Below are positions 8,786-37,533 of a DNA stretch of 64,000 nucleotides, one piece after another. The notes below the pieces were generated by a model. It was given only the letters and a program-made list of their open reading frames with translations. It had not been told where the DNA came from and did not search any database. The stretch lies in NCBI RefSeq assembly GCF_000497125.1, contig NC_090597.1, forward strand, positions 321,797 through 385,796, given 5' to 3'. Origin of the DNA: Spironucleus salmonicida (taxonomy: Eukaryota). The position numbers and the translations under genes were made by a program. Each line of letters begins with the position of its first letter. Position 1 is the stretch's first letter.

Positions 8786-8816
8786 ATTATTATTATTATT
8801 TTATTATTATTATTAT

Positions 8817-8849
<33 letters not shown>

Positions 8850-8886
8850 TATTTTTTTTTTTTTTTTTATTTTATTATTATTATTA

Positions 8887-8919
<33 letters not shown>

Positions 8920-14190: not shown

Positions 14191-16150
14191 GATAATTAAT
14201 TCACTTTAAAACGTATAAGCGTACATAGTTAACTATAAATATTTCGTCAAGAGTAAAAATCACATAGTTATTAAACTTTAAAAGCTATATTATTAAGATA
14301 TTCTGCCATTATAAACATACAATAAACTTTTTATCTCGTATTAATTTACTATATCTGACAAGTATCCTAAGTAACTAGTAAGATTTAACTATTTTTTAAA
14401 AACTTACTTAGAAATAGATAATTACAATGATCTCAAAAATTACAAGTTTTATTATCTTATTATATAGAGTTAATACCTAAATAGAAGATATAATTTAGAA
14501 ATCAACGAAACTGCTTAATTTGCAATACATAGTATAATAATTTATAGAAACATAGCATAGATTAGGTATTTTTATAAGACTACCCAAGATGGTTTATTAA
14601 TGTTGATTTGTTTCAATAATAATATTATTAAGTTTATTGAATAATAATTGAATACATCCGTAATATTCATTGTATTTATTAATTAATTAAGTATACATAT
14701 GCGCAGAGATTTTTCTGTGTTAATGTCCAAGTATTTATTTTCAACTTGTAATTCCACTGTTAAATGCTAAAAATCTTATTTATATATTTCAATGCTAAAT
14801 AATAGCTTGGATTATTAGATATTTTTCATACTATAGAAATTCTTTAAATAATATTTAGAAAAATATTATAGCTTATCTTTCTTATTTAATATGCTTTATA
14901 TGATCATATAGTACTAATCACATATGTTAAAGTAAAATATGAATAGTTTCATTGTAAAATAGAATTAAAATATGAATAATTTTTGTATTGTAACAGATTA
15001 AGAACATCAATACGTACTGAATATATATTGATAATATTTAGACCAATATTATATCTAGAGTTGAAATAAATAATTGCTTCTTGTTTATCATATTTTTATG
15101 TTTTAGTAATTAAAGTTTATTTATATACTATCAAACTTGAACATAATTTAATGCTTTATTGTCAAGATTAGTAAATTCATCTTAATATTTCCTTAAAAAT
15201 TTATTTAGTTTAAATTATAATTATTATTTAGTAAATTATAATTATATAATTTTTTAGAAGTATATAAGCGTTAATGTATAACAATAATAAAACTACTAAA
15301 AATTGAAATCCACATTATCATTTCTAATAACTATTACCAAAAAAATTTAAATTTATACAATCCTTATGAAAATATCAAATATTTTCACGGAAACCCGAAT
15401 AGAACCATAAGTAATAGCAAGTATATTAATCTGTTTTTAGCAATTAATCACATGAACTTAATAAATTATAGTAGAAATAGGATGATATTTATTTTTTTAA
15501 GTCCTTGTTCTAATAGTATTGTAAGATATAAATTGATGTATCAGAAAATAAAAATCAATTACTAGGAGCTACATATTAGTTGAACTTCTAGATACCATAG
15601 TATATATAATGTTTATAAATCTTATTTTAAACAAACTTGCAATTTAGTAAAACAATAATATTTATATAAAAGCCTTTCAGCCATAGTAAAATTAACAGCT
15701 CATTCTAAATAGAAATAATGTTCATTTTTATTATAAAGCATATTATGTTTCCACTTATTTAATTTTTTAGTAAATTTAATTTAGTAGTACAGTAAATAAC
15801 CATATATTATGATTAATAAAATTTGTATAAAATTTTATAGTTTTCTTATTATCCAGAAGGTATGTATTAAGTGGGTTCAAAATATTAAAGTTATCTTCTA
15901 ATTATAGTTTTTATTATTTCTATCCCAATACTTTTCAAATTATTTTCACTGATTTCACTAATTTTTATAACCAGATAATTATTATTAAATTTTTTCTTAA
16001 AGTAAGATATCCAATTTATCTTTAGTTGAACCGTATTTTCTCTTAGTTCAATATAATCCTATTTTATTAACATATACTTTCCTTTAAACCAAATTTATCT
16101 ATATTCCATGATAGAATATTATAATAATTTTACCACTCCTTTTATTGTTC

Positions 16151-18624
16151 ATGGGCGCAGCCGGATCTTGCTCAGACGAGTCAAATAAGTGCGGTTCACC
16201 CTATTACTGCCCTCTCGACCACCATGAATCAACTGCATGTCTCCTGTGTAATCCAAGCCAGCCAGTCGGAACCTCCTGCCAATGCGGTAAAAAGTACACA
16301 ATCCACCCCAACTGCGCGGGCTGCAACGGCGAAGCCTGTATCGCTTGTACACAAAATTTCTTTCTACTAAATAGCAAGTGCGAAGCCTGCATCGCAAACT
16401 GCACGACCTGCAGCAGCAATACGACCTGCGACTCGTGTTTTGCTGGCTACTTTGCGAACGCCTCGAAAGTCTGCCAGAAGTGCTCAGAAAACTGCCAAAC
16501 ATGCAGCACCGAGACTAGCTGTCTAACATGCTTTCCGAATCAGTTCCTGACCCCTGAGAAATCCTGCCACTTCTGCGCCAAAAACTGCGAGAAGTGCCAG
16601 GGCTGACCGCTTGCGACGTCTGCAAGGACGGGTACTTTCCAGCGGCAGTGGGTTGTGAAAAGTGTGGTGAAGCGATGAAAATAGGTGATGAATGTCAGTG
16701 TGCTGCCGTTAAAATCGCCAATTGCGTGCAGTGCGCTGGTGCCAAGTGCGCGACCTGCAGGATGGGATACAAGCTCATTCTCGGTACCTGCGTGCCAGAC
16801 TAGTGTCAGGTGGATAAAAATTGCCAGATTTACGAGTTCTGCGACGTGAGTGCCACCAAACCCAACGCGTGCAGGTCGTGCTCCAAGCGGTGCAAAACTT
16901 GTTCAGGAGCCGATGACCACTGCACTTCATGCCAGGAGGGTCAGTTCCTCGCCGAAAACACCTGCCAGCCGTGCGATTTTGGCACACCGGCCGGTTTTTC
17001 CTGCAACTGCGGGACAATCATGGCCGCTAACTGTGGTAAGTGCTTAGATGACGCCTGTGCGAGCTGCATCGACGGGTTCATCATGCGTGCAGCGGTATGT
17101 GTTCCTTGCGCGTAGGACCAAATTCAGGCCGCAAGTTGCACATGTCATGGCCAGGTGATCGCAGGCTGCGTGTCGTGCAGCGCAAAAGGCTGTGACGCAT
17201 GCAAGCCAAATTTCAAGCTCATAGACAACGCCTGTCTGCCGAACGAATGCCAGAATACCGTAGACTGCAAAAGCGGCGAGTTCTGCCTGGAGAGCCCGGT
17301 GCAGGTGAACCACTGCGTATCGTGCGGCGAGAACTGTGCCGTGTGCCAGAACGCTGACATTTGCACGCGCTGCCAAAGTGGCTTCTTCAGAGATTCACAA
17401 AGCGCCTGCGCGCCCTGCGCACGCGATATTCAAATGGGTGGCGGCTGCCAGTGTGGGGAGCTCGAAATCAGCAACTGCGCAGAGTGCGGCGCGGACACCT
17501 GCAAAGCATGCAGGGATAAGTACGACCTGCGCGGCGGTGCCTGTATCGCAAACGAGTGCCAGGACGACTCGGAGTGCGGGGATGGGAATTTTTGCAGCAT
17601 CCGCGCATCAGGGCACCAGTGTGCTAAATGCGGCAAGAGCTGCCAATCGTGCAAAAAGAGCGCAACAAATTGTACCAGCTGCAACTCTGGGCAGAGCTTG
17701 ATCGGTGGAGTCTGCGACAGATGCCGTTTCGACAGCCCGGCAGGCACTGCGTGCAACTGCAGCGGGAAACTCGTGCCAAACTGCGGTTTCTGCGAGAAGC
17801 AAAACTGCTAATTTGCGCCAATAATTTTTTCCTTGACGGCAGCGTCTGCGCTCCGTGCAGCGATAACCGTCCGATTGGGAGCCTTTGCACCTGCTCTGGG
17901 CTGGACACTGAGAATTGCGCGCTTTGCGGTACAAATTCGTGCGCTAAATGCGTTGTCGGCAGCAAGATAATTGACGGAGAATGCAGGTCTGACGAGTGCG
18001 GGAACAGTAGAGTGTGCGAGGCAGGAAAGTACTGCTAGCAGTTTGTGGACAAAATTAATGTTTGTCTGGAATGTGATGTTAGTGCTAGACCTGCACTATG
18101 GTGGGTTCGTGCGATTTATGTTCATCTGGGTATTTTAAAACGGCGCAAAACTGCGTTCTGTGCGATAAAATTTAAAATGGGGAGTGTAACTGCGGTGAAA
18201 TGATGCTAAAGTCGTGTAGGATGTGCGAAAAAGATAAATGTATTTAGTGCGCAGTTGGAAATAGCGTGCGTGAAGGTGTTTGCGTCAGCTGTGCAGAACT
18301 GGTAGAGGGCGAAAAGTGTGATTGTGGACTCAAATAAATTAACTGCATCAAATGCGGTTAGGAAAATCAGTGCTCAGTATGCCATGATGGTCACATATGA
18401 TAAAAGGGAATGCATCAGTTGCGCCGACAATCCCCAGCTATGCGTAATAAAATTTCATAAATACAATTATTTTCATCGTCATAGGAATCTTAGGTGGGAT
18501 AGCCTTAATAGTCGGGGCTGCGGTATTTGTAATCATCGCTAGGAAACGGAAATCCCATGTTAATCCAGATTATGACACCACACTTTTAAATCAGAGCAAC
18601 AACTCGAGCAGCTAGTTATTTTGA
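16151..18624 (+). CDS. Cysteine-rich membrane protein; frameshifts near 16600, 17808, ~18095 and possibly later
   Basis: MGAAGSCSDESNKCGSPYYCP..., repeated GxxCxCG..NCxxC modules, TM IIFIVIGILGGIALIVGAAVFVIIA followed by RKRK, TGA at 18622-18624. Confidence 0.88.
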
Positions 18625-19139
18625 GTGACATGTGACATATTTTAAATGCTATTGGCGTTAAAGTGTTTGAGGTAGATATCGGATGGCATTATATAGAGAA
18701 GTTAAGGAAAATGCTTTACTGACAGTTTAAGTAAAACTTTCACAGCCTTCATGTATTCTAGTCACGAGAGTTATAAGTATTATCTCATTATTGTCATTAG
18801 CCATTGTAATGAAAAATGATTAGTTTCAGAGATGTTAGTAGTGACTACTAGATAGTATAATTGTAAATGCAGCTGCTAAATTCATACTTTTAATTTCAAT
18901 TTTTAGCCCATTCTCATAAACGGATGTGAGTATGACCATTGTGCAGTAAGTTTCCATAAACAGTCAGATATATAATGTGATAAATATCTTAATTTTAGCA
19001 TATGGCTTATACTAGGATTGGGCTAGATGCGCTTTATTGTAATATACAGGATGCATATAGTAAATGTTGAATACTGCCTATAATCTATAATATGGAAATT
19101 TCGTACCTTGACTATCTCTTGATATAATTAGTAAGGGAA

Positions 19140-19234
19140 TAGCACGACTAGGAATCGAACCCAGGTCTCTTAAAAAATTTCGCCAAATGGCAAATAGAAT
19201 AATCATAAGAATGCTCCCACTGCACCATCGTACT
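19140..19234 (-). tRNA. tRNA or tRNA-like gene with a 24-nt-expanded anticodon arm (body most like tRNA-Gly; identity uncertain)
   Basis: AGTACGA-TG-GTGC AGTGGGA GCAT-T-[41-nt arm CTTA...TAAG]-AGAC-CTGGG TTCGATT CCTAG-TCGTGCT-A. Acceptor, D and T stems pair, and A and B boxes are canonical. Confidence 0.75.
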
Positions 19235-20187
19235 AATATTATATTTTATTAACTAGCATAGTATTTTCTTATTACTCCTAGAGCCTACTTAGCTGTATAT
19301 GAAAATTATGCAGAAAGTATCATGCTTCATAAATTACTTAAACTAGCTATAGCCACCTATTCCGTGCATAATGAGATCCTCATACACAAAAGCTGATTAA
19401 GTTGGATTTAGGCATTTCCCTAAAAGTTTTTACTTTGCTAAATACAATTATAATATATATTGATACTTTTCTAAAATACGAACATGGAAACCTGTAGATG
19501 ATTTATTTCATCGAGGGTAGTTTGATTTAATATTTGGTAATATTAACAACAAATAAGCACTAAAACACTACTGGGATGTATTTCGCCTAAGTGGTGAATT
19601 TATTTGTATAAGTACCACTAGTTACCGTAAATCACTAAACTAGTCTTTATAACAAACTACTACTTACTGTTTGTATAAATTTATAAGAAGTGGCCTTAAT
19701 TTAGCTACGAAATTATTGGTATAGTGTCTACTATTAATAAGTTCTAATTAAATTAACTTATTATTTAACTTAACTTTAGGCACTCTTACTTAAAATATTT
19801 TAGTATTTTTACTTAAGCTATCTAAAATGCTTAATTTATAGGAAATAAGCAATTAATAGGTGTAAAATAATAAAGCTAGGTATTAAAATAATATTATTAT
19901 TGTTCACTGTATTTCAATAAATAGTGTCTTAAATTAAAGCTTCCAAGTAAAAATTTATATCAAAATTTGCTTAAAACTATAACATTTGATGTAAACTTAT
20001 ACGTCATAACAATTACAGAATGCTTACTGATCTAAAAGTAGATTACGTAGTTCCTATTATCTAAAGTTTCACTTTACTCTGTTCTGATAAACATACTTGC
20101 CTATTAGCATTTAAGATAAAATAAACCATTGATAGTGAGCAAAATAGTGAATAAATATAAGCTTTCACAAAATAAATATTAAACCTC

Positions 20188-23100
20188 TCACTTTGCCATA
20201 TTGTGCTGGAAGCTGTATTTCTTAGGGCGCTTGGCGTAAAAGATGGACACGCCGGCTATTATGCCTACAGCGGCCACCGCAGCTACCACCATACCGGCTA
20301 TGTTCGCTATGAACAGCGACTCATTGCGCTATTCTTCTATCGGGACGCAGGCTTGCTCGACCATTTCAAAACCCTCGGCGCAGGAGTCGCATTAATCTTC
20401 CGTGCTCAACTTCCACTCCGGGGTGCAGGCGAAGCATTTCGTACCGCTGCAGTTTGCGCAGTTTAGCATACTGGCGCAGTTGCACGAACTTTTGCCGTTG
20501 CAAGCCTCGCAGGACTGGGAGGAACCGCACATTTCACCTACTAAGCAGTTATCGTCAGTCTTGCACATCACCTTGCAGACCTGATCGACCAGTACGTATC
20601 CGGTAAAGCAGCCTGCACACTTGTTCCCATCGCAGCTCGTGCACGTATCGAACTGGTTCCCCTCGCAGTTACAGAGATAGCCTGGCGATACATATTAGCA
20701 CAAAGAGCAGGAAGGGGACAAAATACAGGCATGCCCGGTGAGGCAGAATGACGAGTCCTTGGTGTTCTCGCAGACCCCCGTGAAGCCTGGAGGGCTCACT
20801 AGGCACCGCTTGTTGATCATCACCGACCCCGCCATGCAGGTGGCACATCCCTTGTTGTCTGCGGTGCAGGTGGCGCAGTTCGGCGCATTGCCGCAGTTGC
20901 ACTGGTTTTGGACCGCAGGGCACTATTTCGTCTCATTGGGGCCGCTGCAGTAGTGCCCCGCCGGAACAGGTTTGCTGCAAATCGGCACCGAGCAGGAGTT
21001 CTGAGAGTCGGGCCCGTACCCCGACAGGCAGCTGGAGCAGGTTCCGGCAGCACTGCACGCGACACAGTTTATCGAGTCGCCGCAGTTGCAGGCTTTGTCC
21101 TATTTTCCGCAGACGTTGCACTCGCTGGAGTTTTGATCGCAGTATTAGTTTACAGGGCAGTCAGAGGTGTTGACGCAGGTGACTTTGGGTTGGCAAAAGC
21201 CATTAACGAGCAGAAACCTTCCAGGCATGTCTGGCAGCTGTCTTGGTACGCCGAGCAGGTCTGGCAGTTTTTGGCCTCCGAGCATTTGCATTCCTTAACC
21301 GATGCGGTGGTGCAGAGCTCGCAGCTGGCTTCTTTATCGTCAGAAGGACAGAAGAAGCCGTTGAAGCAGGAGTTTGCTGGCCCGCATTTGTTAGGCTTGC
21401 ACTCGCCCTTGAGGAGCTCCAGCCAGCAATACAGAGCTTGCACTAATTATCTTAGCAGAAAATGCAGTTTTCGCGCATGGTTCCACCGCAGTTGCACGAC
21501 TTCCCACTCGTCAGCTGGTTGCATGGAAGGCATACCTCCCCGAACTAGCCATTGCAGAAAAACGAGTTGTTGCACCTCGAAGACTTGTTGCTTTATCGCA
21601 TATATTTTTAGTTTCATTAGTGATTTTAGCGCATTACAGAGTGGAAGGATTGAATACATGGCCGCTCGTGCACGTCTGGCAAGTGTTGGATAGAATTCCG
21701 CAGGTTTTACAGTTTTGTGCCGTTCCGCAGTTGCACGCTGCGTCTACCGCAATTGAGCATGGCTCGCACTTTGCGTTTGCTGCCGAGTCAGGCGGACAGT
21801 GGTGTTGGGAAGGCATTTTGCCGCTAAAAGATCATCCCCGCAGTTGTTTTCTACACAGGCCCCTTGTAATAGCTCAAACCCGGTAATACAGCTCGTGCAG
21901 CTTCCACTGCTGCATTTGTTACAGTTCTTGATGTCATCTCCGCTGCAGTGACAGAATTAGTTTATCTTAAGCTGACCACAGCTGACGCAAATGGTTCCAA
22001 AAGTACCATTACAGTAAAAGTCGTCATTACACAATGTTGATTTATCATTAGAATCACATATATTTCCCTTCAGACTACATTAATTCTTGTCATCTAATTC
22101 GTATCCGGCAATGCAGGAACCGCAGGAGTTACTGGTGCTACCGCAGGTTTGGCAGAAGTTGGCCCCGCATTAGCAGGCATTAGCGGATTTATCTGTGCAT
22201 AACTAGCAGTTAACCGTGCCGCTGCTCCCATCAGGGCAGTAATTGCCCAACGCGCAGGTGCTTGAGGGCCCGCCAGAATTGCAGGTGTTTGTCACGCAGA
22301 TGTTGTTGTACGGATAGTAGCCTTCAATGCAGGCCTCGCAGCCACATTCTCCGAATTACATTACTTACAATTTCGTAACAGCACACTACCGCATTTGCAG
22401 GCCTTACCTTTGTCCATTGAAACACAAGATACGCACGCGTCTCCGAAGTTTCCTTTGCAGAACTTGCCAGACATGCAAAGAGTGGAGCCATTGGCGAAGT
22501 CGCAGATATCGCCCTTCAAAACACATTGAGAAGTGCTCGCCTGCAAATCATATCCAGAAAAGCAGGACCCACAAGTATTTACTACCGTCCCGCACGTTTA
22601 ACAACTAGGGAGAAGCCCGCACTTGCATTCTTGCTGCTGATTATTGCATTGCTTGCAAACCTCGGTTCCCGATACTGCGCTATTCGAACAGTAGTACCCA
22701 TCAATGCAGTTTTGTGTGTTTTTGGGATCTCCGCACATATTGGGTACGCAAACTCCATCGATAGGCAGATATTTATCAATGCAAACTTCGCATTTATCCC
22801 CTTTGCATTACTTGCAGTTTTCTTGGAGCGTCAAGTTGCAATTGCAAAATTGACCCTCTGCAATATTCGCGCATAGTTTACAATCATCTCCAGGTTTCCA
22901 TTGCACATGAAACCTATATCACATGTAAAGGACTCCTATAAAGGGCTGCAAACATTAGACTTCGCTATGCAGCGCATTTTGTCGTTGAAATGAAACCTGG
23001 AAGACAGGTGCTGCACGTTTATTTCTCCAAATCGCAGGTTTCGCAGTTTTGCAGGTAAAAACACTAGCACGGCACCGTTTAACCCTTCACACAGGGTTCG

Positions 23101-28397: not shown

Positions 28398-30269
28398 TCA
28401 GTTTAAATCTTATTACTGAATATTATGCAAGGCCTTACTTTTAGTACTTCTTGCTTATTTTTTATGTTTAACTATATAGTAAATAACTCCAGCAGTTATA
28501 CATAAAACCAAAATACAAACCACAACAACAATTATTATTATCATACTTGACTTCAAACCTTGCTAGGATTTTTCACACCGACTATTTTCTAAATTATATT
28601 TATCATAACACTCTTCACATTAGGCGCTATTTATGCACGATTTACAACCTTCTTCGCATTTTAAGCATTCTTTCTTACCTCCTAATTTATTACAAAATTC
28701 TCCGTACTGACAATATTAATCAGAAAAACAGTAATCTTTAACACACTGCATCTAAGATGATAGGCTATAATTGCTTTTACAGGTTTGGCACTGATTTAAA
28801 CTTGCACATTTTAAGCAGTTTTCTTAACATTACTTGCACGTTGCATTTTGTAAATCACAAAACTTTCCGTCTTCGCAAAGTTAAGTAGAAGAACAATTGG
28901 AGTTGGAACACTCGTATTTCTAATTAAATTTATAACCATATTAACAAGACAGGCATGTATCCTCATCATAGCATTTGTCGCAATTTTTGGGGCAGCGCAC
29001 GCACAAGTTTTTTTAAAACACGAAGCCTTGTTTACATATTTCACAGGTATCTAAGTTATTACATTTTTCACAATTGGGAATACATTTTTCGCAGCTTGAA
29101 AACTCTGGAATTTAGAGACAAAACTGTTAAGAGGGACAATCTTTTGTTTCCTAACACTCGCTTTTCACAAGTTTCTTACAATAACCATTTATAAGTTCAT
29201 AGCCAATAAGGCACTGATAACAGTCATCTGCATTTGTACAATGTTAGCATCCAATACTACACCGCTAGCACTTGCTTTAGTCATTCACAAAATATTTTTC
29301 GAAACAGTTTTAACAAATATCATCAGACATACAATATTCACAGTTTTCTCCACACTTAACGCAACCTTTGTTGTAAATAACGTAATGTGGTTCGCACTAT
29401 TTACAATCTTTGTAACCTCTCAGTTCTAAGCAATTCGGTCCTAATGAAAAGCAATAATTACCTCCAAGTTCAGCTAAACAATATTCTTTTGGTTTACAAG
29501 GATTTAAATCGTTGCATTAAGTTAAACGACAGTTAGTAACATTATTCTTTGTTTAGAGGGTATAACCTTTATCACACAGTTAACATTCGTCATTAGACTT
29601 ACAAGAGAGACAGTTGCTACTACAGGATCCGCATGAAGTATTATGCTTATAAAACTTACTGTCGCATATGTTACATTAGCCACTTATATTACACTAAATA
29701 CAGTTATTTGGACAGGAAACACAACTTCCACCACTAATGGTAAATTTATTGACACATTTTGTGCAAATAGTTTCATTTGAACATTCTGAACAATTTTTAC
29801 TGCATTGTTTACATATTGATCCAGCTAAGAAAAATCCAGATTTACATTTAGAGCATTATGAGGTATTAGAGCAGTTTAAACATCCCCAAGAACAGGTTGA
29901 ACATGTATAATTGGAGTTTAGAAAATATCCATTAAAACAATTAATACAAGTTTGGCTATTCTGACATTCTCTGCAACCAGTATCACACTTTATGCAATAT
30001 TTATCAGCTAAGAAGCGTCCTGGTTCACATTTAGTACAAATTGACGAGTCGATACAAGTATCACAACCATCGCTACAGTATAAACATTTTTAGTTAGATA
30101 GATACTTTCCTTTTACACAGCCAACGCAAACTTTATAATCCTCTGGAAGACATTTTCCACAACTAAACACACCACATGCCTAACAAATATTTTACATGTT
30201 TAAAGTGTTAGTGATAGGGCATACAGTTCCATCAGGGCAATCGTGCTCTGGACATTCATAAAGTGACAT
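28398..30269 (-). CDS. Cysteine-rich membrane protein, about 623 aa; paralog of the genes at 9054 and 62171
   Basis: MSLYECPEHDCPDGTVCP...CGVFSCGKC, CxxC repeats, TM IIIIVVVVCILVLCITAGVIYYIV followed by KHKK. Start-to-stop span is 1872 nt (multiple of 3). Confidence 0.9.
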
Positions 30270-30745
30270 TTTATATTAGTTATTTAAATTATATTTACAA
30301 TAATTATAATAAATAGTGTATTTTATATTTTTAGGTTTTCCAATTTAGTTATGCTCGATTACTATTTAATAATAATATGTTAATTTAGATCACAATATTT
30401 TAGTAGTATATATTACTTAAATTATTAAATAGAAACTCTTAAAATGTGGTGTACTCTAATGATAATATTTTAATATATTATGTTTATGTATTCATACATA
30501 AATTGATGAAAAATTTAATAATATTGTGCATATTCCTTATTAAACAAGACTTATATTAATAATAGTATTTCCTAAAATAGAATAATATTTTAAATATTTA
30601 AATAAGATACCTTTCTATTATTACATTACTCATTACAAATTTATTCATCTTATAATATAATTATAAAATATAAATTAAATAATTATCATTAATTTATCGT
30701 ATTTAATATTATTTAAAATTAATTTTGTTTGCTGATCTTGATAAT

Positions 30746-30914
<169 letters not shown>

Positions 30915-31726
30915 ATTAACTAATTTGTTTTAACACATAGCGCACGCCAAAATATTTATGTCTCAGCAAAAATTTTACTAAATTTACTATTTGCAAACTA
31001 ATTTACTGACAAACCACATAATAACCTATACATATATTTTATGCACTACATAGTTATTTTATGTATAAATTCTGGCGATAGATCATATCAATCCGTAACC
31101 TCACGTTTAATATTAATTTTATCAAAATTTCCCGTTTTACCTCTTTGTAAACCCACTTTTTCGCCCTAATACTAAAAACTAAAAACCTCCAATAATAGAA
31201 ACTACCCCATTACGTATTTTACACTCTTTTTCACCCTAATTTACCTTTTGAGAGCATTTTACATCACTAAAATCATAATTCTCAATATGCTCCACCCAAA
31301 AGCTCTAATTTTCTCTTAGCGTATACCTTTCACCTCCTTCTATAAACTCTTCGCCAGCCTTTAGCCCACCAACCTCACAACAATTTATCTTTCCACATTT
31401 TTATTCTATAAAAAATAACAATTATATATCATATAATAATCATATAACTGCGCATTTTTACCTTTCCTAATTCAAATTTTCAAATTTTTTTTCTCCCAGA
31501 ATCAACCACACACGCCCATTTGCAGCACTACGTGCTTAACCCAAATTAGCTCATTTTCGTCTGACGCAAAATTCTGCAAATGCCGTAATCCCCCTTAATC
31601 CTGAAACTGAAACTCACCGCAATTCGCGCTTTTAGAAACTGAGCATTTCCGCTCGCAAAATTTGCATCTGAAAGGCTGTTTCCAGTGCCGTGAAAACGCT
31701 ATTTGTGGTATGTTTATTTTGCAAAA

Positions 31727-32363
31727 AATGATGTTCTAGAATTAATTATTAGGAAGGATGATGCGTTTCTGAGTGAAAGAAATGGTAGTTTGGCGGTTTC
31801 TGAATGTGATATAATGAGAGCATCTACGTATAATAATGATGTTCTAGAATTAATTATTAGGAAGGATGATGCGTTTCTGAGTGAAAGAAATGGCAGTTTA
31901 GCGGTTTCTGAATGTGATATAATGATCGCATCTACGTATAATAATGATGTTCTAGAATTAATTATTAGGAAGGATGATGCGTTTCTGAGTGAAAGAAATG
32001 GTAGTTTGGCGGTTTCTGAATGTGATATAATGATCGCATCTACGTATAATAATGATGTTCTAGAATTAATTATTAGGAAGGATGATGCGTTTCTGAGTGA
32101 AAGAAATGGTAGTTTGGCGGTTTCTGAATGTGATATAATGAGAGCATCTACGTATAATAATGATGTTCTAGAATTAATTATTAGGAAGGATGATGCGTTT
32201 CTGAGTGAAAGAAATGGCAGTTTAGCGGTTTCTGAATGTGATATAATGAGAGCATCTACGTATAATAATGATGTTCTAGAATTAATTATTAGGAAGGATG
32301 ATGCGTTTCTGAGTGAAAGAAATGGCAGTTTAGCGGTTTCTGAATGTGATATAATGAGAGCAT
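31727..32363. repeat. Tandem repeat, 108-bp unit, about 5.9 copies
   Basis: Unit begins AATGATGTTCTAGAATTAATTATTAGG at 31727, 31835, 31943, 32051, 32159 and 32267. Only four variable positions. Confidence 0.97.
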
Positions 32364-32632
32364 TTTTTTCAGCGTTAATTGCAACTTTAGGTGTTACGTT
32401 TGGTCAAGATTTTGGCAATAACATTTGCCGATTGGGGGTTATTTTATATGTGTGTAATATGTCAGGTTCAGATGATTTAGCGATGTGGTTACGTTATATC
32501 AGTTTATTCTTATGCAAAACAGCGCTAGATACGATTTCGAGGATAGTGCGTTGGAGATTTTAATCATAATTAATTTGAATTTATATTTGAATTCGGTTTT
32601 CCGTTTTAAAATAAAGCGATATTAAAATTGAA

Positions 32633-35600
32633 TTAGTATTAGTATTAGTATTAGTATTAGTATTAGTATTAGTATAATTAGTATTAGTATTAGTATTAGT
32701 ATTAGTATTTTTTTTAGTATTAGTATTTATATTGTATTAGTATTAGTATTAGTATTAGTATTAGTATTAGTATTAGTATTAGTATTAGTATTAGTATTAG
32801 TATTAGTATTAGTATTAGTATTAGTATTAGTATTAGTATTAGTATTAGTATTAGTATTAGTATTAGTATTAGTATTAGTATTAGTATTTATTGTATTTAT
32901 TAGTATTAGTATTAGTATTTAGTATTAGTATTTAGTATTAGTATTAGTATTAGTATTAGTATTAGTATTAGTATTAGTATTAGTATTAGTATTAGTATTA
33001 GTATTAGTATTAGTATTAGTATTAGTATTAGTATTAGTATTAGTATTAGTTTTTTTTTTTTTTTTTTTTTTTTTATTAGTATTAGTATTAGTATTAGTAT
33101 TAGTATTAGTATTAGTATTAGTATTAGTATTAGTATTTTAGTATTTTTAGTATTAGTATTAGTATTTAGTATTAGTATTAGTATTAGTATTAGTATTAGT
33201 ATTAGTTTTATTAGTATTAGTATTAGTATTAGTATTAGTATTAGTATTAGTATTAGTATTAGTATTAGTATTAGTATTAGTATTAGTATTAGTATTAGTA
33301 TTAGTATTAGTATTAGTATTAGTATTAGTATTAGTATTAGTATTAGTATTAGTATTAGTATTAGTATTAAGTATTAGTATTAGTATTAGTATTAGTATTA
33401 GTATTAGTATTAGTATTAGTATTAGTATTAGTATTAGTATTAGTATTAGTATTAGTATTAGTATTAGTATTAGTATTAGTATTAGTATTAGTATTAGTAT
33501 TAGTATTAGTATTAGTATTAGTATTAGTATTAGTATTAGTATTAGTATTAGTATTAGTATTAGTATTAGTATTAGTATTAGTATTAGTATTAGTATTATA
33601 TTAGTATTAGTATTAGTATTATATTAGTATTAGTATTAGTATTAGTATTTATTAGTATTAGTATTAGTATTAGTATTAGTATTAGTATTAGTATTAGTAT
33701 TAGTATTAGTATTAGTATTAGTATTAGTATTAGTATTAGTATTAGTATTAGTATTAGTATTAGTATTAGTATTAGTATTAGTATTAGTATTAGTATTTAG
33801 TATTAGTATTAGTATTAGTATTAGTATTATAGTATTAGTATTAGTATTAGTATTAGTATTATTTAGTATTAGTATTAGTATTAGTATTAGTATTAGTATT
33901 AGTATTGTATAGTATTAGTATTAGTATTAGTATTAGTATTAGTATTAGTATTAGTATTAGTATTAGTATTAGTATTAGTATTAGTATTAGTATTATTAGT
34001 ATTAGTATTAGTATTAGTATTTTATTAGTATTAGTATTTAGTATTAGTATTAGTATTAGTATTAGTATTAGTATTAGTATTAGTATTAGTATTAGTATTA
34101 GTATTAGTATTAGTATTAGTATTAGTATTAGTATTAGTATTAGTATTAGTATTAGTATTAGTATTAGTATTAGTATTAGTATTAGTATTAGTATTAGTAT
34201 TAGTATTTTAGTATTAGTATTAGTATTAGTATTAGTATTAGTATTAGTATTAGTATTAGTATTAGTATTAGTATTAGTATTAGTATTAGTATTAGTATTA
34301 TAGTATTAGTATTAGTATTAGTATTAGTATTAGTATTAGTATTAGTATTAGTATTAGTATTAGTATTAGTATTAGTATTAGTATTAGTATTAGTATTAGT
34401 ATTTTTTTTTTTAGTATTAGTATTAGTATTTATTAGTATTATTTAGTATTAGTATTAGTATTAGTATTAGTATTAGTATTAGTATTTAGTATTAGTATTA
34501 GTATTAGTATTAGTATTAGTATTAGTATTAGTATTTATTTATTAGTATTAGTATTATTAGTATTAGTATTAAGTATTAGTATTAGTATTAGTATTAGTAT
34601 TAGTATTAGTATTATTTAGTATTAGTATTAGTTATTAGTATTAGTTTATTTAGTATTAGTATTAGTATTAGTATTAGTATTAGTATTAGTATTAGTATTA
34701 GTATTAGTATTAGTATTAGTATTAGTATTAGTATTAGTATTTAGTATTAGTATTAGTATTAGTATTAGTATTAGTATTAGTATTAGTATTAGTATTAGTA
34801 TTAGTATTAGTATTAGTATTAGTAGTATTAGTATTAGTATTAGTATTAGTATTAGTATTAGTATTAGTATTATTAGTATTAGTATTAGTATTAGTATTAG
34901 TATTAGTATTAGTATTAGTATTAGTATTAGTATTAGTATTAGTATTAGTATTAGTATTAGTATTAGTATTAGTATTAGTATTAGTATTAGTATTAGTATT
35001 AGTATTAGTATTAGTATTAGTATTAGTATTAGTATTAGTATTAGTATTAGTATTAGTATTAAGTATTAGTATTAGTATTAGTATTAGTATTAGTATTAGT
35101 ATTAGTATTAGTATTAGTATTAGTATTAGTATTAGTATTAGTATTAGTATTAGTATTAGTATTAGTATTAGTATTAGTATTAGTATTAGTATTAGTATTA
35201 GTATTAGTATTAGTATTAGTATTAGTATTAGTATTAGTATTAGTATTAGTATTAGTATTAGTATTAGTATTAGTATTAGTATTAGTATTAGTATTAGTAT
35301 TAGTATTAGTATTGTATTAGTATTAGTATTAGTATTAGTATTAGTATTAGTATTAGTTTGTATTAGTATTAGTATTAGTATTAGTATTAGTATTAGTATT
35401 TAGTATTAGTATTAGTATTAAGTATTAGTATTAGTATTAGTATTAGTATTAGTATTAGTATTAGTATTTAGTATTAGTATTAGTATTAGTATTAGTATTA
35501 GTATTAGTATTAGTATTAGTATTAGTATTAGTATTAGTATTAGTATTAGTATTAGTATTAGTATTTATTAGTATTAGTATTAGTATTAGTATTAGTATTA

Positions 35601-37533
35601 GTATTAGTATTAGTATTAGTATTAGTATTAGTATTAGTATTAGTATTAGTATTAGTATTAGTATTAGTATTGTATTAGTATTAGTATTATATTAGTATTA
35701 GTATTAGTTTAATTAGTATTAGTATTAGTTTAGTATTAGTATTTATTAGTATTAGTATTAGTATTAGTATTATTAGTATTAGTATTAGTATTAGTATTAG
35801 TATTAGTATTAGTATTAGTATTAGTATTAGTATTAGTATTAGTATTAGTATTAGTATTAGTATTAGTATTAGTATTAGTATTAGTATTAGTATTTAGTAT
35901 TAGTATTAGTATTAGTATTAGTATTAGTATTAGTATTAGTATTAGTATTAGTATTAGTATTAGTATTTAGTATTAGTATTAGTATTAGTATTAGTATTAG
36001 TTATTAGTATTAGTATTAGTATTTAGTATTATATTAGTATTAGTATTAGTATTAGTATTAGTATTAGTATTAGTATTAGTATTAGTATTAGTATTAGTAT
36101 TAGTATTAGTATTAGTATTAGTATTAGTATTAGTATTAGTATTAGTATTTAGTATTAGTATTAGTATTAGTATTAGTATTAGTATTTAGTATTAGTATTT
36201 TAGTATTAGTATTAGTTATTTAGTATTAGTATTAGTATTTAGTATTAGTATTAGTATTAGTATTAGTATTAGTATTAGTATTTAGTATTAGTATTAGTAT
36301 TAGTATTAGTATTAGTATTAGTATTAGTATTAGTTAGTATTAGTATTAGTATTATATTATTAGTATTAGTATTAGTATTAGTATTAGTATTAGTATTAGT
36401 ATTAGTATTAGTATTAGTATTAGTATTAGTATTAGTATTAGTATTAGTATTAGTATTAGTATTAGTATTAGTATTAGTATTAGTATTAGTATTAGTATAG
36501 TATTAGTATTAGTATTAGTATTAGTATTAGTATTAGTATTAGTATTAGTATTAGTATTAGTATTAGTATTAGTATTAGTATTAGTATTAGTATTAGTATT
36601 AGTATTAGTATTAGTATTAGTATTAGTATTAGTATAGTATTAGTATTAGTATTATATTATTTTAGTATTAGTATTAGTATTAGTATTAGTATTTATTTAG
36701 TATTAGTATTTTAGTATTAGTATTAGTATTAGTATTAGTATTAGTATTAGTATTAGTATTAGTATTAGTATTAGTATTAGTATTAGTATTAGTATTAGTA
36801 TTAGTATTAGTATTAGTATTAGTATTAGTATTAGTATTAGTATTAGTATTAGTATTAGTATTAGTATTAGTATTAGTATTAGTATTAGTATTTAGTATTA
36901 GTATTAGTATTAGTATTTAGTATTAGTATTTTAGTATTAGTATTAGTATTAGTATTTAGTATTAGTATTAGTATTAGTATTAGTATTAGTATTAGTATTA
37001 GTATTTAGTATTAGTATTAGTATTAGTATTAGTATTAGTATTAGTATTAGTATTAGTATTAGTATTAGTATTAGTATTAGTATTAGTATTAGTATTAGTA
37101 TTAGTATTAGTATTAGTATTAGTATTAGTATTTTTATTTTTTTTTTTTTTATTTTTTTTTAGTATTAGTATTAGTATTAGTATTAGTTATTTAGTATTAG
37201 TATTAGTATTAGTATTAGTATTAGTATTAGTATTAGTATTAGTATTAGTATTAGTATTAGTATTAGTATTAGTATTAGTATTAGTATTAGTATTAGTATT
37301 AGTATTAGTATTAGTATTAGTATTAGTATTAGTATTAGTATTAGTATTAGTATTAGTATTAGTATTAGTATTTAGTATTAGTATTTAGTATATTAGTATT
37401 AGTATTAGTATTAGTATTAGTATTAGTATTAGTATTAGTATTAGTATTAGTATTAGTATTAGTATTAGTATTAGTATTAGTATTAGTATTAGTATTAGTA
37501 TTAGTATTAGTATTAGTATTAGTATTAGTATTA
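32633..37533. repeat. (TTAGTA)n hexamer satellite, about 4.9 kb
   Basis: About 800 units with scattered indels and poly-T interruptions. Confidence 0.98.

Follow-up and report, generated by a model that had tools for sequence, protein, structure and literature searches.

The locus and its genomic setting

Spironucleus salmonicida is a fish parasite that reads TAA and TAG as Gln. In the window, the 64,000-nt stretch of its DNA analysed here, a tRNA-like gene of 95 nt lies on the minus strand and reads from 19234 to 19140. The gene occupies a 2-kb AT-rich gap in a gene-poor array of cysteine-rich surface-protein (CRMP) genes. On one side stands a plus-strand CRMP gene with a frame change near its end, and on the other the 3' end of a minus-strand CRMP gene (20188-21291). 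The CRMP array and its swings in G+C content fit the published description of the S. salmonicida genome (PMC1805757, PMC9509377); the chromosome-scale genome paper characterizes such regions as gene-poor and variable (PMC9509377).

Several other features of the window were recorded along the way. Its G+C mosaic is extreme, from 16% to 53% in 2-kb intervals, and the G+C-rich blocks tend to be CRMP genes. Three of these genes are apparently intact, have many in-frame TAA and TAG codons, and encode a C-terminal membrane helix with a short basic tail.

16145-18198 and 17628-18038, plus strand: CRMP-like gene beside the tRNA-like gene, G+C about 53-55%, with Cys-rich repeats that continue in another frame; probably a pseudogene
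28398-30269, minus strand: apparently intact CRMP gene, Pfam VSP match of 46.9 bits
54087-56240, minus strand: intact gene in which TAA or TAG occurs 13 times in frame; its product is a cysteine-rich membrane protein
62171-63715, plus strand: apparently intact CRMP gene, Pfam VSP match of 51.1 bits
32632-37533: 4.9-kb hexamer microsatellite (ATTAGT)n, about 820 copies, 94% matches, nearly free of C on this strand (GC skew 1.0 at 34001-36000)
31727-32363: 108-bp tandem repeat, 5.9 copies, 98% identity
31814-32578, plus strand: open frame into which the 108-bp repeat falls and in which it would encode 36-residue protein repeats
8786-8918 and 30744-30918: (ATT)n microsatellites of 45 and 58 copies

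Besides itself, the 54087-56240 product has best relatives at 60%, 59%, 40% and 30% identity; each of them carries Pfam VSP and is an S. salmonicida protein named cysteine-rich membrane protein 2. The frame 31814-32578 gave no convincing Pfam match; five families reach E < 0.001 there, with no stretch passing alone.

A tRNA-like gene with an intact body

The gene matches the Rfam tRNA model RF00005 over its full length (model positions 1-71) with 39.1 bits against a gathering score of 29; the E-value is 1.2e-6 in an 801-nt search and 9.8e-5 in a search of the whole window. It is missed by a default-filter Rfam scan and by ARAGORN run without introns. Once introns are allowed, ARAGORN, one of the programs that the original prediction had named as a check, finds it, and it is the only tRNA gene called in the 64 kb. 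Its parts are as follows.

19140-19234, minus strand: whole tRNA-like gene, 95 nt (RF00005; ARAGORN with introns)
19199-19234, minus strand: presumed 5' exon, tRNA positions 1-37, with the acceptor 5' strand, the D arm, the 5' side of the anticodon stem and the loop letters G-A-U-U-A-U at positions 32-37 (direct reading, CM alignment)
19175-19198, minus strand: insert of 24 nt following position 37, where canonical introns lie (CM alignment; identity with a paralog ends at 19174)
19179-19194, minus strand: small hairpin in the insert, 6 pairs and a 4-nt loop (MFE and centroid folds)
19140-19174, minus strand: presumed 3' exon, positions 38-73, with the 3' strand of the anticodon stem, a 4-nt variable loop, the T arm, the acceptor 3' strand and the discriminator A (19141-19174 are common to a contig of higher depth in run X1)

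The body of the molecule is well kept. Direct reading agrees with the earlier claim that the acceptor, D and T stems all pair: the acceptor stem has 7 of 7 pairs (one U-G), the D stem 4 of 4 (one G-U) and the T stem 5 of 5 (one G-U). The acceptor begins with A1-U72, again as claimed, followed by G2-C71 and U3-G70. The anticodon stem has 4 of 5 pairs, the mismatch being U31-U39. When the gene is read against the RF00005 consensus line, the conserved U8, A14, G18G19, G53, T54-T55-C56, A58 and C61 are all present. The G+C content of the exons is 43.7%. The cloverleaf reaches -22.1 kcal/mol, against -22.8 for the unconstrained MFE structure, and the fold energy of the 95 nt is no better than that of shuffled sequences (z -0.70), which is usual for tRNAs.

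The insert in the anticodon arm

The anticodon arm measures 41 nt instead of the normal 17; in the CM alignment it takes up 33 nt where the model has 9. The 24 extra nucleotides of the original prediction are thus present in the alignment, and they are also present in contigs assembled from public runs of two independent studies. The insertion is carried, with no listed letter differences, by record 24 of run X7 (covering 18978-19325), by record 12 of run X5 (18909-19220), and by records 2 and 3 of run X1, which overlap across it. The contigs bear out the insertion, which does not come from an error of assembly. Nothing was found in favour of an artefact of assembly or sequencing, and this reading is rejected on these contigs as extremely improbable. 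Run X6 has no cover over 19174-19214, a gap from which no conclusion is drawn. The joined, spliced form is absent from the contigs of four runs, an absence that is uninformative on the mature tRNA.

The insert hairpin contains the GCC that the original prediction took as an anticodon, and it has no second occurrence in the window.

Reading the anticodon arm

The arm was read by removing one piece at a time. None of 18 single removals in the standard register, and none of 162 over nine registers, combines a stem of 4 or more pairs with a loop that has both U33 and a purine at 37. The canonical 24-nt cut leaves the loop G32-A33-U-U-A-U37-U38 on a 4-bp stem. It places UUA at positions 34-36 flanked by A33 and U37, so that the loop departs from the canonical one, just as the original prediction had said of a single 37/38 intron. 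No product with at most one intron removed has the 7-nt loop, U33, purine 37 and 5-bp stem of a decoding tRNA. The isotype that ARAGORN assigns varies with the cut among Asn, Ile, Gly and Gln: a 26-nt removal gives Asn(att) with an 8-bp acceptor, and a 24-nt removal in a shifted register gives Ile(tat).

Two readings of the arm had been put forward as working tRNAs. In the first, a 24-nt intron is spliced at 37/38 and the resulting UUA, on its 4-bp stem, reads UAA (perhaps UAG) as Gln. The insert does lie at the canonical place: the identity with another locus runs from position 38 onward, so that its boundary at 19174 coincides with the start of the 3' exon, which supports the 37/38 boundary that had been proposed. 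The tRNA body is intact. As in a eukaryotic pre-tRNA with a canonical intron, the insert follows position 37, the 3' exon starts at 38, a pair between position 32 and intron position -3 is possible, and the splice sites lie outside long helices. With the canonical cut, position 32 pairs (G-U) with intron position -3, and the central helix forms 3 of 4 pairs; this helix score is equalled by 488 of 2000 shuffled introns. A decoder of this kind would have work to do in a host that reads TAA and TAG as Gln and in which a single intact CRMP gene holds 13 such codons in frame. There are also precedents for a short stem: UGA is read in Blastocrithidia and some ciliates by a tRNA-Trp(CCA) whose anticodon stem has 4 bp, and tRNAs with such stems are known to alter the reading of stop codons in other protists (PMC13092985). 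The gene resembles that tRNA in its four-pair anticodon stem and in a host with reassigned stop codons; it differs in that the tRNA-Trp(CCA) described there has a canonical loop and a near-cognate codon, whereas here the loop itself is aberrant. UUA does stand at 34-36 after one canonical cut, as the Gln(UUA) claim had it, but U33 and the purine at 37 are absent, and the loop could close to 3 nt via G32-U38 and A33-U37. The gene also has an internal T6 run and lacks a terminator (see below), and its 5' exon appears to be single copy. Moreover, an odd decoder is not needed because a canonical Gln(CUA) gene has already been reported in S. salmonicida (PMC5304391). We regard a working UAA decoder as unlikely.

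In the second reading, a tRNA-Gly(GCC) would mature from this gene by loss of an 11-nt intron at 30/31 and a 13-nt intron at 37/38, in the manner of the red alga Cyanidioschyzon. Taking out both pieces leaves UUGCCAU as the loop, and ARAGORN assigns the shortened sequence to Gly(gcc); the pairing of GCC with GGC within the insert, which had also been predicted, is present in the MFE fold. The loop is therefore obtainable but does not rise above chance. When the inner 33 nt of the arm were shuffled (n=300), all 300 shuffled arms allowed at least one double-removal reading, with a mean of 15 anticodons, and the real arm by double removal also allows GGC, TTG and TCT. The product retains the U31-U39 mismatch. 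Glycine tRNAs are identified at the acceptor by the pairs C2-G71 and G3-C70, in place of which this gene has G2-C71 and U3-G70. The bulge-helix-bulge motif has a general geometry against which the proposed introns can be judged, and each of them forms 1 of the 4 central pairs. The GCC loop takes two removals and is not reached by the known splicing rules. For eukaryotic nuclear genes, ectopic introns are reported as a first in Cyanidioschyzon (PMC3728597). As with the ectopic and multiple introns of Cyanidioschyzon merolae and archaea, the window gene has more surplus sequence than a single simple insertion into the loop would call for, and a canonical-looking loop in the middle of the arm; unlike them, it has no bulge-helix-bulge at the proposed sites, and its reading is not above chance. 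The shuffling result and the 1-of-4 pairs at both introns lead us to reject the two-intron reading as evidence, and a tRNA-Gly(GCC) with two introns at this locus is very improbable.

Signals for Pol III

The signals that bear on transcription by Pol III are the following.

19217-19227, minus strand: A-box-like stretch, tRNA positions 8-19 (direct reading)
19151-19161, minus strand: B box in the T loop, GGTTCGATTCC, the only match in the window at no more than 1 mismatch
19172-19177, minus strand: T6 run over the border of insert and 3' exon, a potential Pol III stop (direct count)
18812-18816, minus strand: T5, the first run of four or more T downstream, 324 nt past the gene end (direct count)

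We take 19217-19227 to be the A box and GGTTCGATTCC to be the B box, and with these presumed consensus sequences the gene has the two internal boxes of a type 2 Pol III gene. The end of the gene is different from what such a gene would have, since there is no oligo-T right after it and there is one inside it. Both observations, the internal T6 and the missing T-tract, had been made in the original prediction. A Pol III transcript would probably stop inside the gene at the T6, although the number of T residues that diplomonads require may differ.

Other loci that share the 3' exon

A contig of run X1 raises the depth over 19133-19173 to about 173, compared with about 27 in neighbouring bins. 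All that this high-depth contig has in common with the window is 19141-19174; to either side its sequence is different. Position 19174 corresponds to tRNA position 38, the first base past a canonical intron, and the shared stretch corresponds to positions 38-72. The 3' exon therefore recurs in at least one further locus, where the upstream sequence is different. That locus has a T4 run 3 nt after the acceptor end and another discriminator. The 5' exon receives no added depth in X1, from which the 5' half appears to be single copy. A tRNA-derived SINE was considered and rejected, the 5' half having no extra depth in X1 and the window no second copy.

A further contig, record 17 of run X6 (depth 4), follows the window through the downstream flank and the 3' exon but departs from its sequence at 19173; it could be a graph join via a shared 31-mer. 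By eye alignment, 16 of 20 letters upstream in this contig match gene positions 13-32, and about 10 nt, versus 29 in the window gene, then precede the 3' strand of the anticodon stem. The contig lacks the G18-G19 pair, and its arm is of another length: against 41 nt in the window gene, a reading by eye gives about 22 nt for this contig, and about 14 nt for the high-depth contig of X1. The sequence of the X6 contig suggests that decayed relatives of the gene exist.

Elsewhere, the searches were negative. No second copy of the gene was found in the window by self-BLAST of 18200-20200, by the RF00005 search or by a search for the T-loop motif, and two short motifs from the loose ends of the other loci are absent from the window. 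In the metagenome contigs scanned, neither the exact T arm with acceptor 3' strand nor a degenerate pattern from D arm to T loop with 24-52 nt between them was found. Among phage records, BLASTN with the gene as query matched 14, none at 80% query cover or more; all of these matches are short T-arm hits or due to chance, and they hold no hint of an isotype.

Two observations concern the surroundings of the gene. Over 18969-19296, a 328-nt core that includes the tRNA-like gene, the summed contig depth in X1 is about half of that of both flanks, and the flanks exist in two versions several per cent apart; a second haplotype or copy may lack this core or have a strongly different one. In run X5, a 2015-nt contig of depth 358 matches 18602-18722 (121 nt, 8 differences, 1 gap) where the nearby depth is 3-10, so that the genome has some abundant or highly expressed relative at another place. 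The stretch 18602-18722 itself has no evident open frame or family.

A tRNA pseudogene or a functional tRNA-shaped element

The anticodon arm most likely cannot yield a readable anticodon, which makes a dead copy of a tRNA gene with an intron the likeliest identity of this gene. A loop with neither U33 nor a purine at 37, the internal T6 and the lack of a terminator lead to the conclusion that probably no working tRNA is made from it. The more specific reading that we prefer, with about even confidence, is a non-decoding pseudogene from an intron-containing nuclear tRNA family of S. salmonicida. On this reading it has the 3' exon and the intron place of the family, but a loop, transcription signals and a 5' exon that would no longer suit a working gene. 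Apart from its unusually well-preserved body, it is probably a tRNA pseudogene of the ordinary sort, and the more exotic readings are not supported: nothing was found that points to the unusual tRNA processing or the regulatory role offered in the original prediction. That prediction had itself named two outcomes that would speak against it, a pseudo-tRNA and data contradicting the insertion; the former is now the most economical reading, whereas the contigs carry the insertion.

The pseudogene could have arisen as follows. A putative family member with the same 3' exon would have been duplicated, and the 5' exon and the anticodon region would have changed after the duplication. The eukaryotic splicing endonuclease is described in PMC4090602 as using a ruler mechanism that measures from the tRNA body, together with the A-I pair. 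If this RNA were made and spliced, the Sen endonuclease, measuring in this way, would cut after position 37 and leave a loop without the U-turn base and without a purine at 37. Pol III would probably halt at the internal T6 and would find no terminator past the gene. The copy would then persist in a gene-poor, fast-changing part of the CRMP surface-antigen array.

Known tRNA genes offer points of comparison on both sides. Unlike the product of a working intron-containing pre-tRNA, that of the window gene has neither U33 nor a purine at 37, and the gene has an internal T6 and no terminator. Like tRNA pseudogenes and the calls of undetermined isotype made by tRNAscan-SE, it has a tRNA score and no consistent anticodon; unlike typical decayed tRNA pseudogenes, it has all body stems and conserved bases intact. 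The 2014 annotation of S. salmonicida counts 145 tRNAs, among them 10 with introns and one listed under unknown isotype (PMC3916229, supplement file 10), and the newer assembly counts 162 tRNAs (PMC9509377). The supplements of PMC1805757 contain no list of tRNA genes.

The intact stems and tertiary bases are more than random decay usually leaves, and the gene is therefore either a young copy or under some constraint. In addition, the 3' half is identical to its relatives and the 5' half is not, for which plain decay is insufficient unless gene conversion or selection on the 3' half is added. The intact body and the identical 3' half thus leave room for a weak UAA decoder or for an element that works through its body and B box.

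Such an element would be functional without decoding. It could be a TFIIIC/Pol III site, serving as a boundary or decoy, or a tRNA-like signal for RNase P/Z, and we assign this a low probability. In that case the gene would owe its preservation to the body and the B box, not to the anticodon. It would account for a perfect body, A box and B box beside an anticodon arm that is free to vary, and for a B-box-bearing 3' half that is the same, letter for letter, across at least two or three loci with differing upstream parts; the position in a CRMP array would also suit it. On the other hand, the identity of the 3' half can also stem from recent duplication, from gene conversion or from contig joining via a shared 31-mer, and the gene occurs once in 64 kb that hold many CRMP genes. 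A broader version, more doubtful still, would place the gene in a small Spironucleus family of non-decoding tRNA-shaped genes with a constant 3' half and variable 5' halves and arms. Equally doubtful is the proposal that the members of this putative family would be TFIIIC/Pol III sites or tRNA-like processing signals in antigen-gene arrays and not decaying pseudogenes.

Significance

Should selection be behind the intact body and the constant 3' half that other loci share, S. salmonicida would have tRNA-like elements with a non-translational role, and this role would lie in a genome whose antigen-gene arrays are poorly understood. If the gene is a pseudogene, the reading that we prefer, it matters mainly for annotation, where the anticodon that is called depends on the program; the locus should then not be counted as a decoder of Asn, Ile or Gly codons or of the reassigned stop codons.
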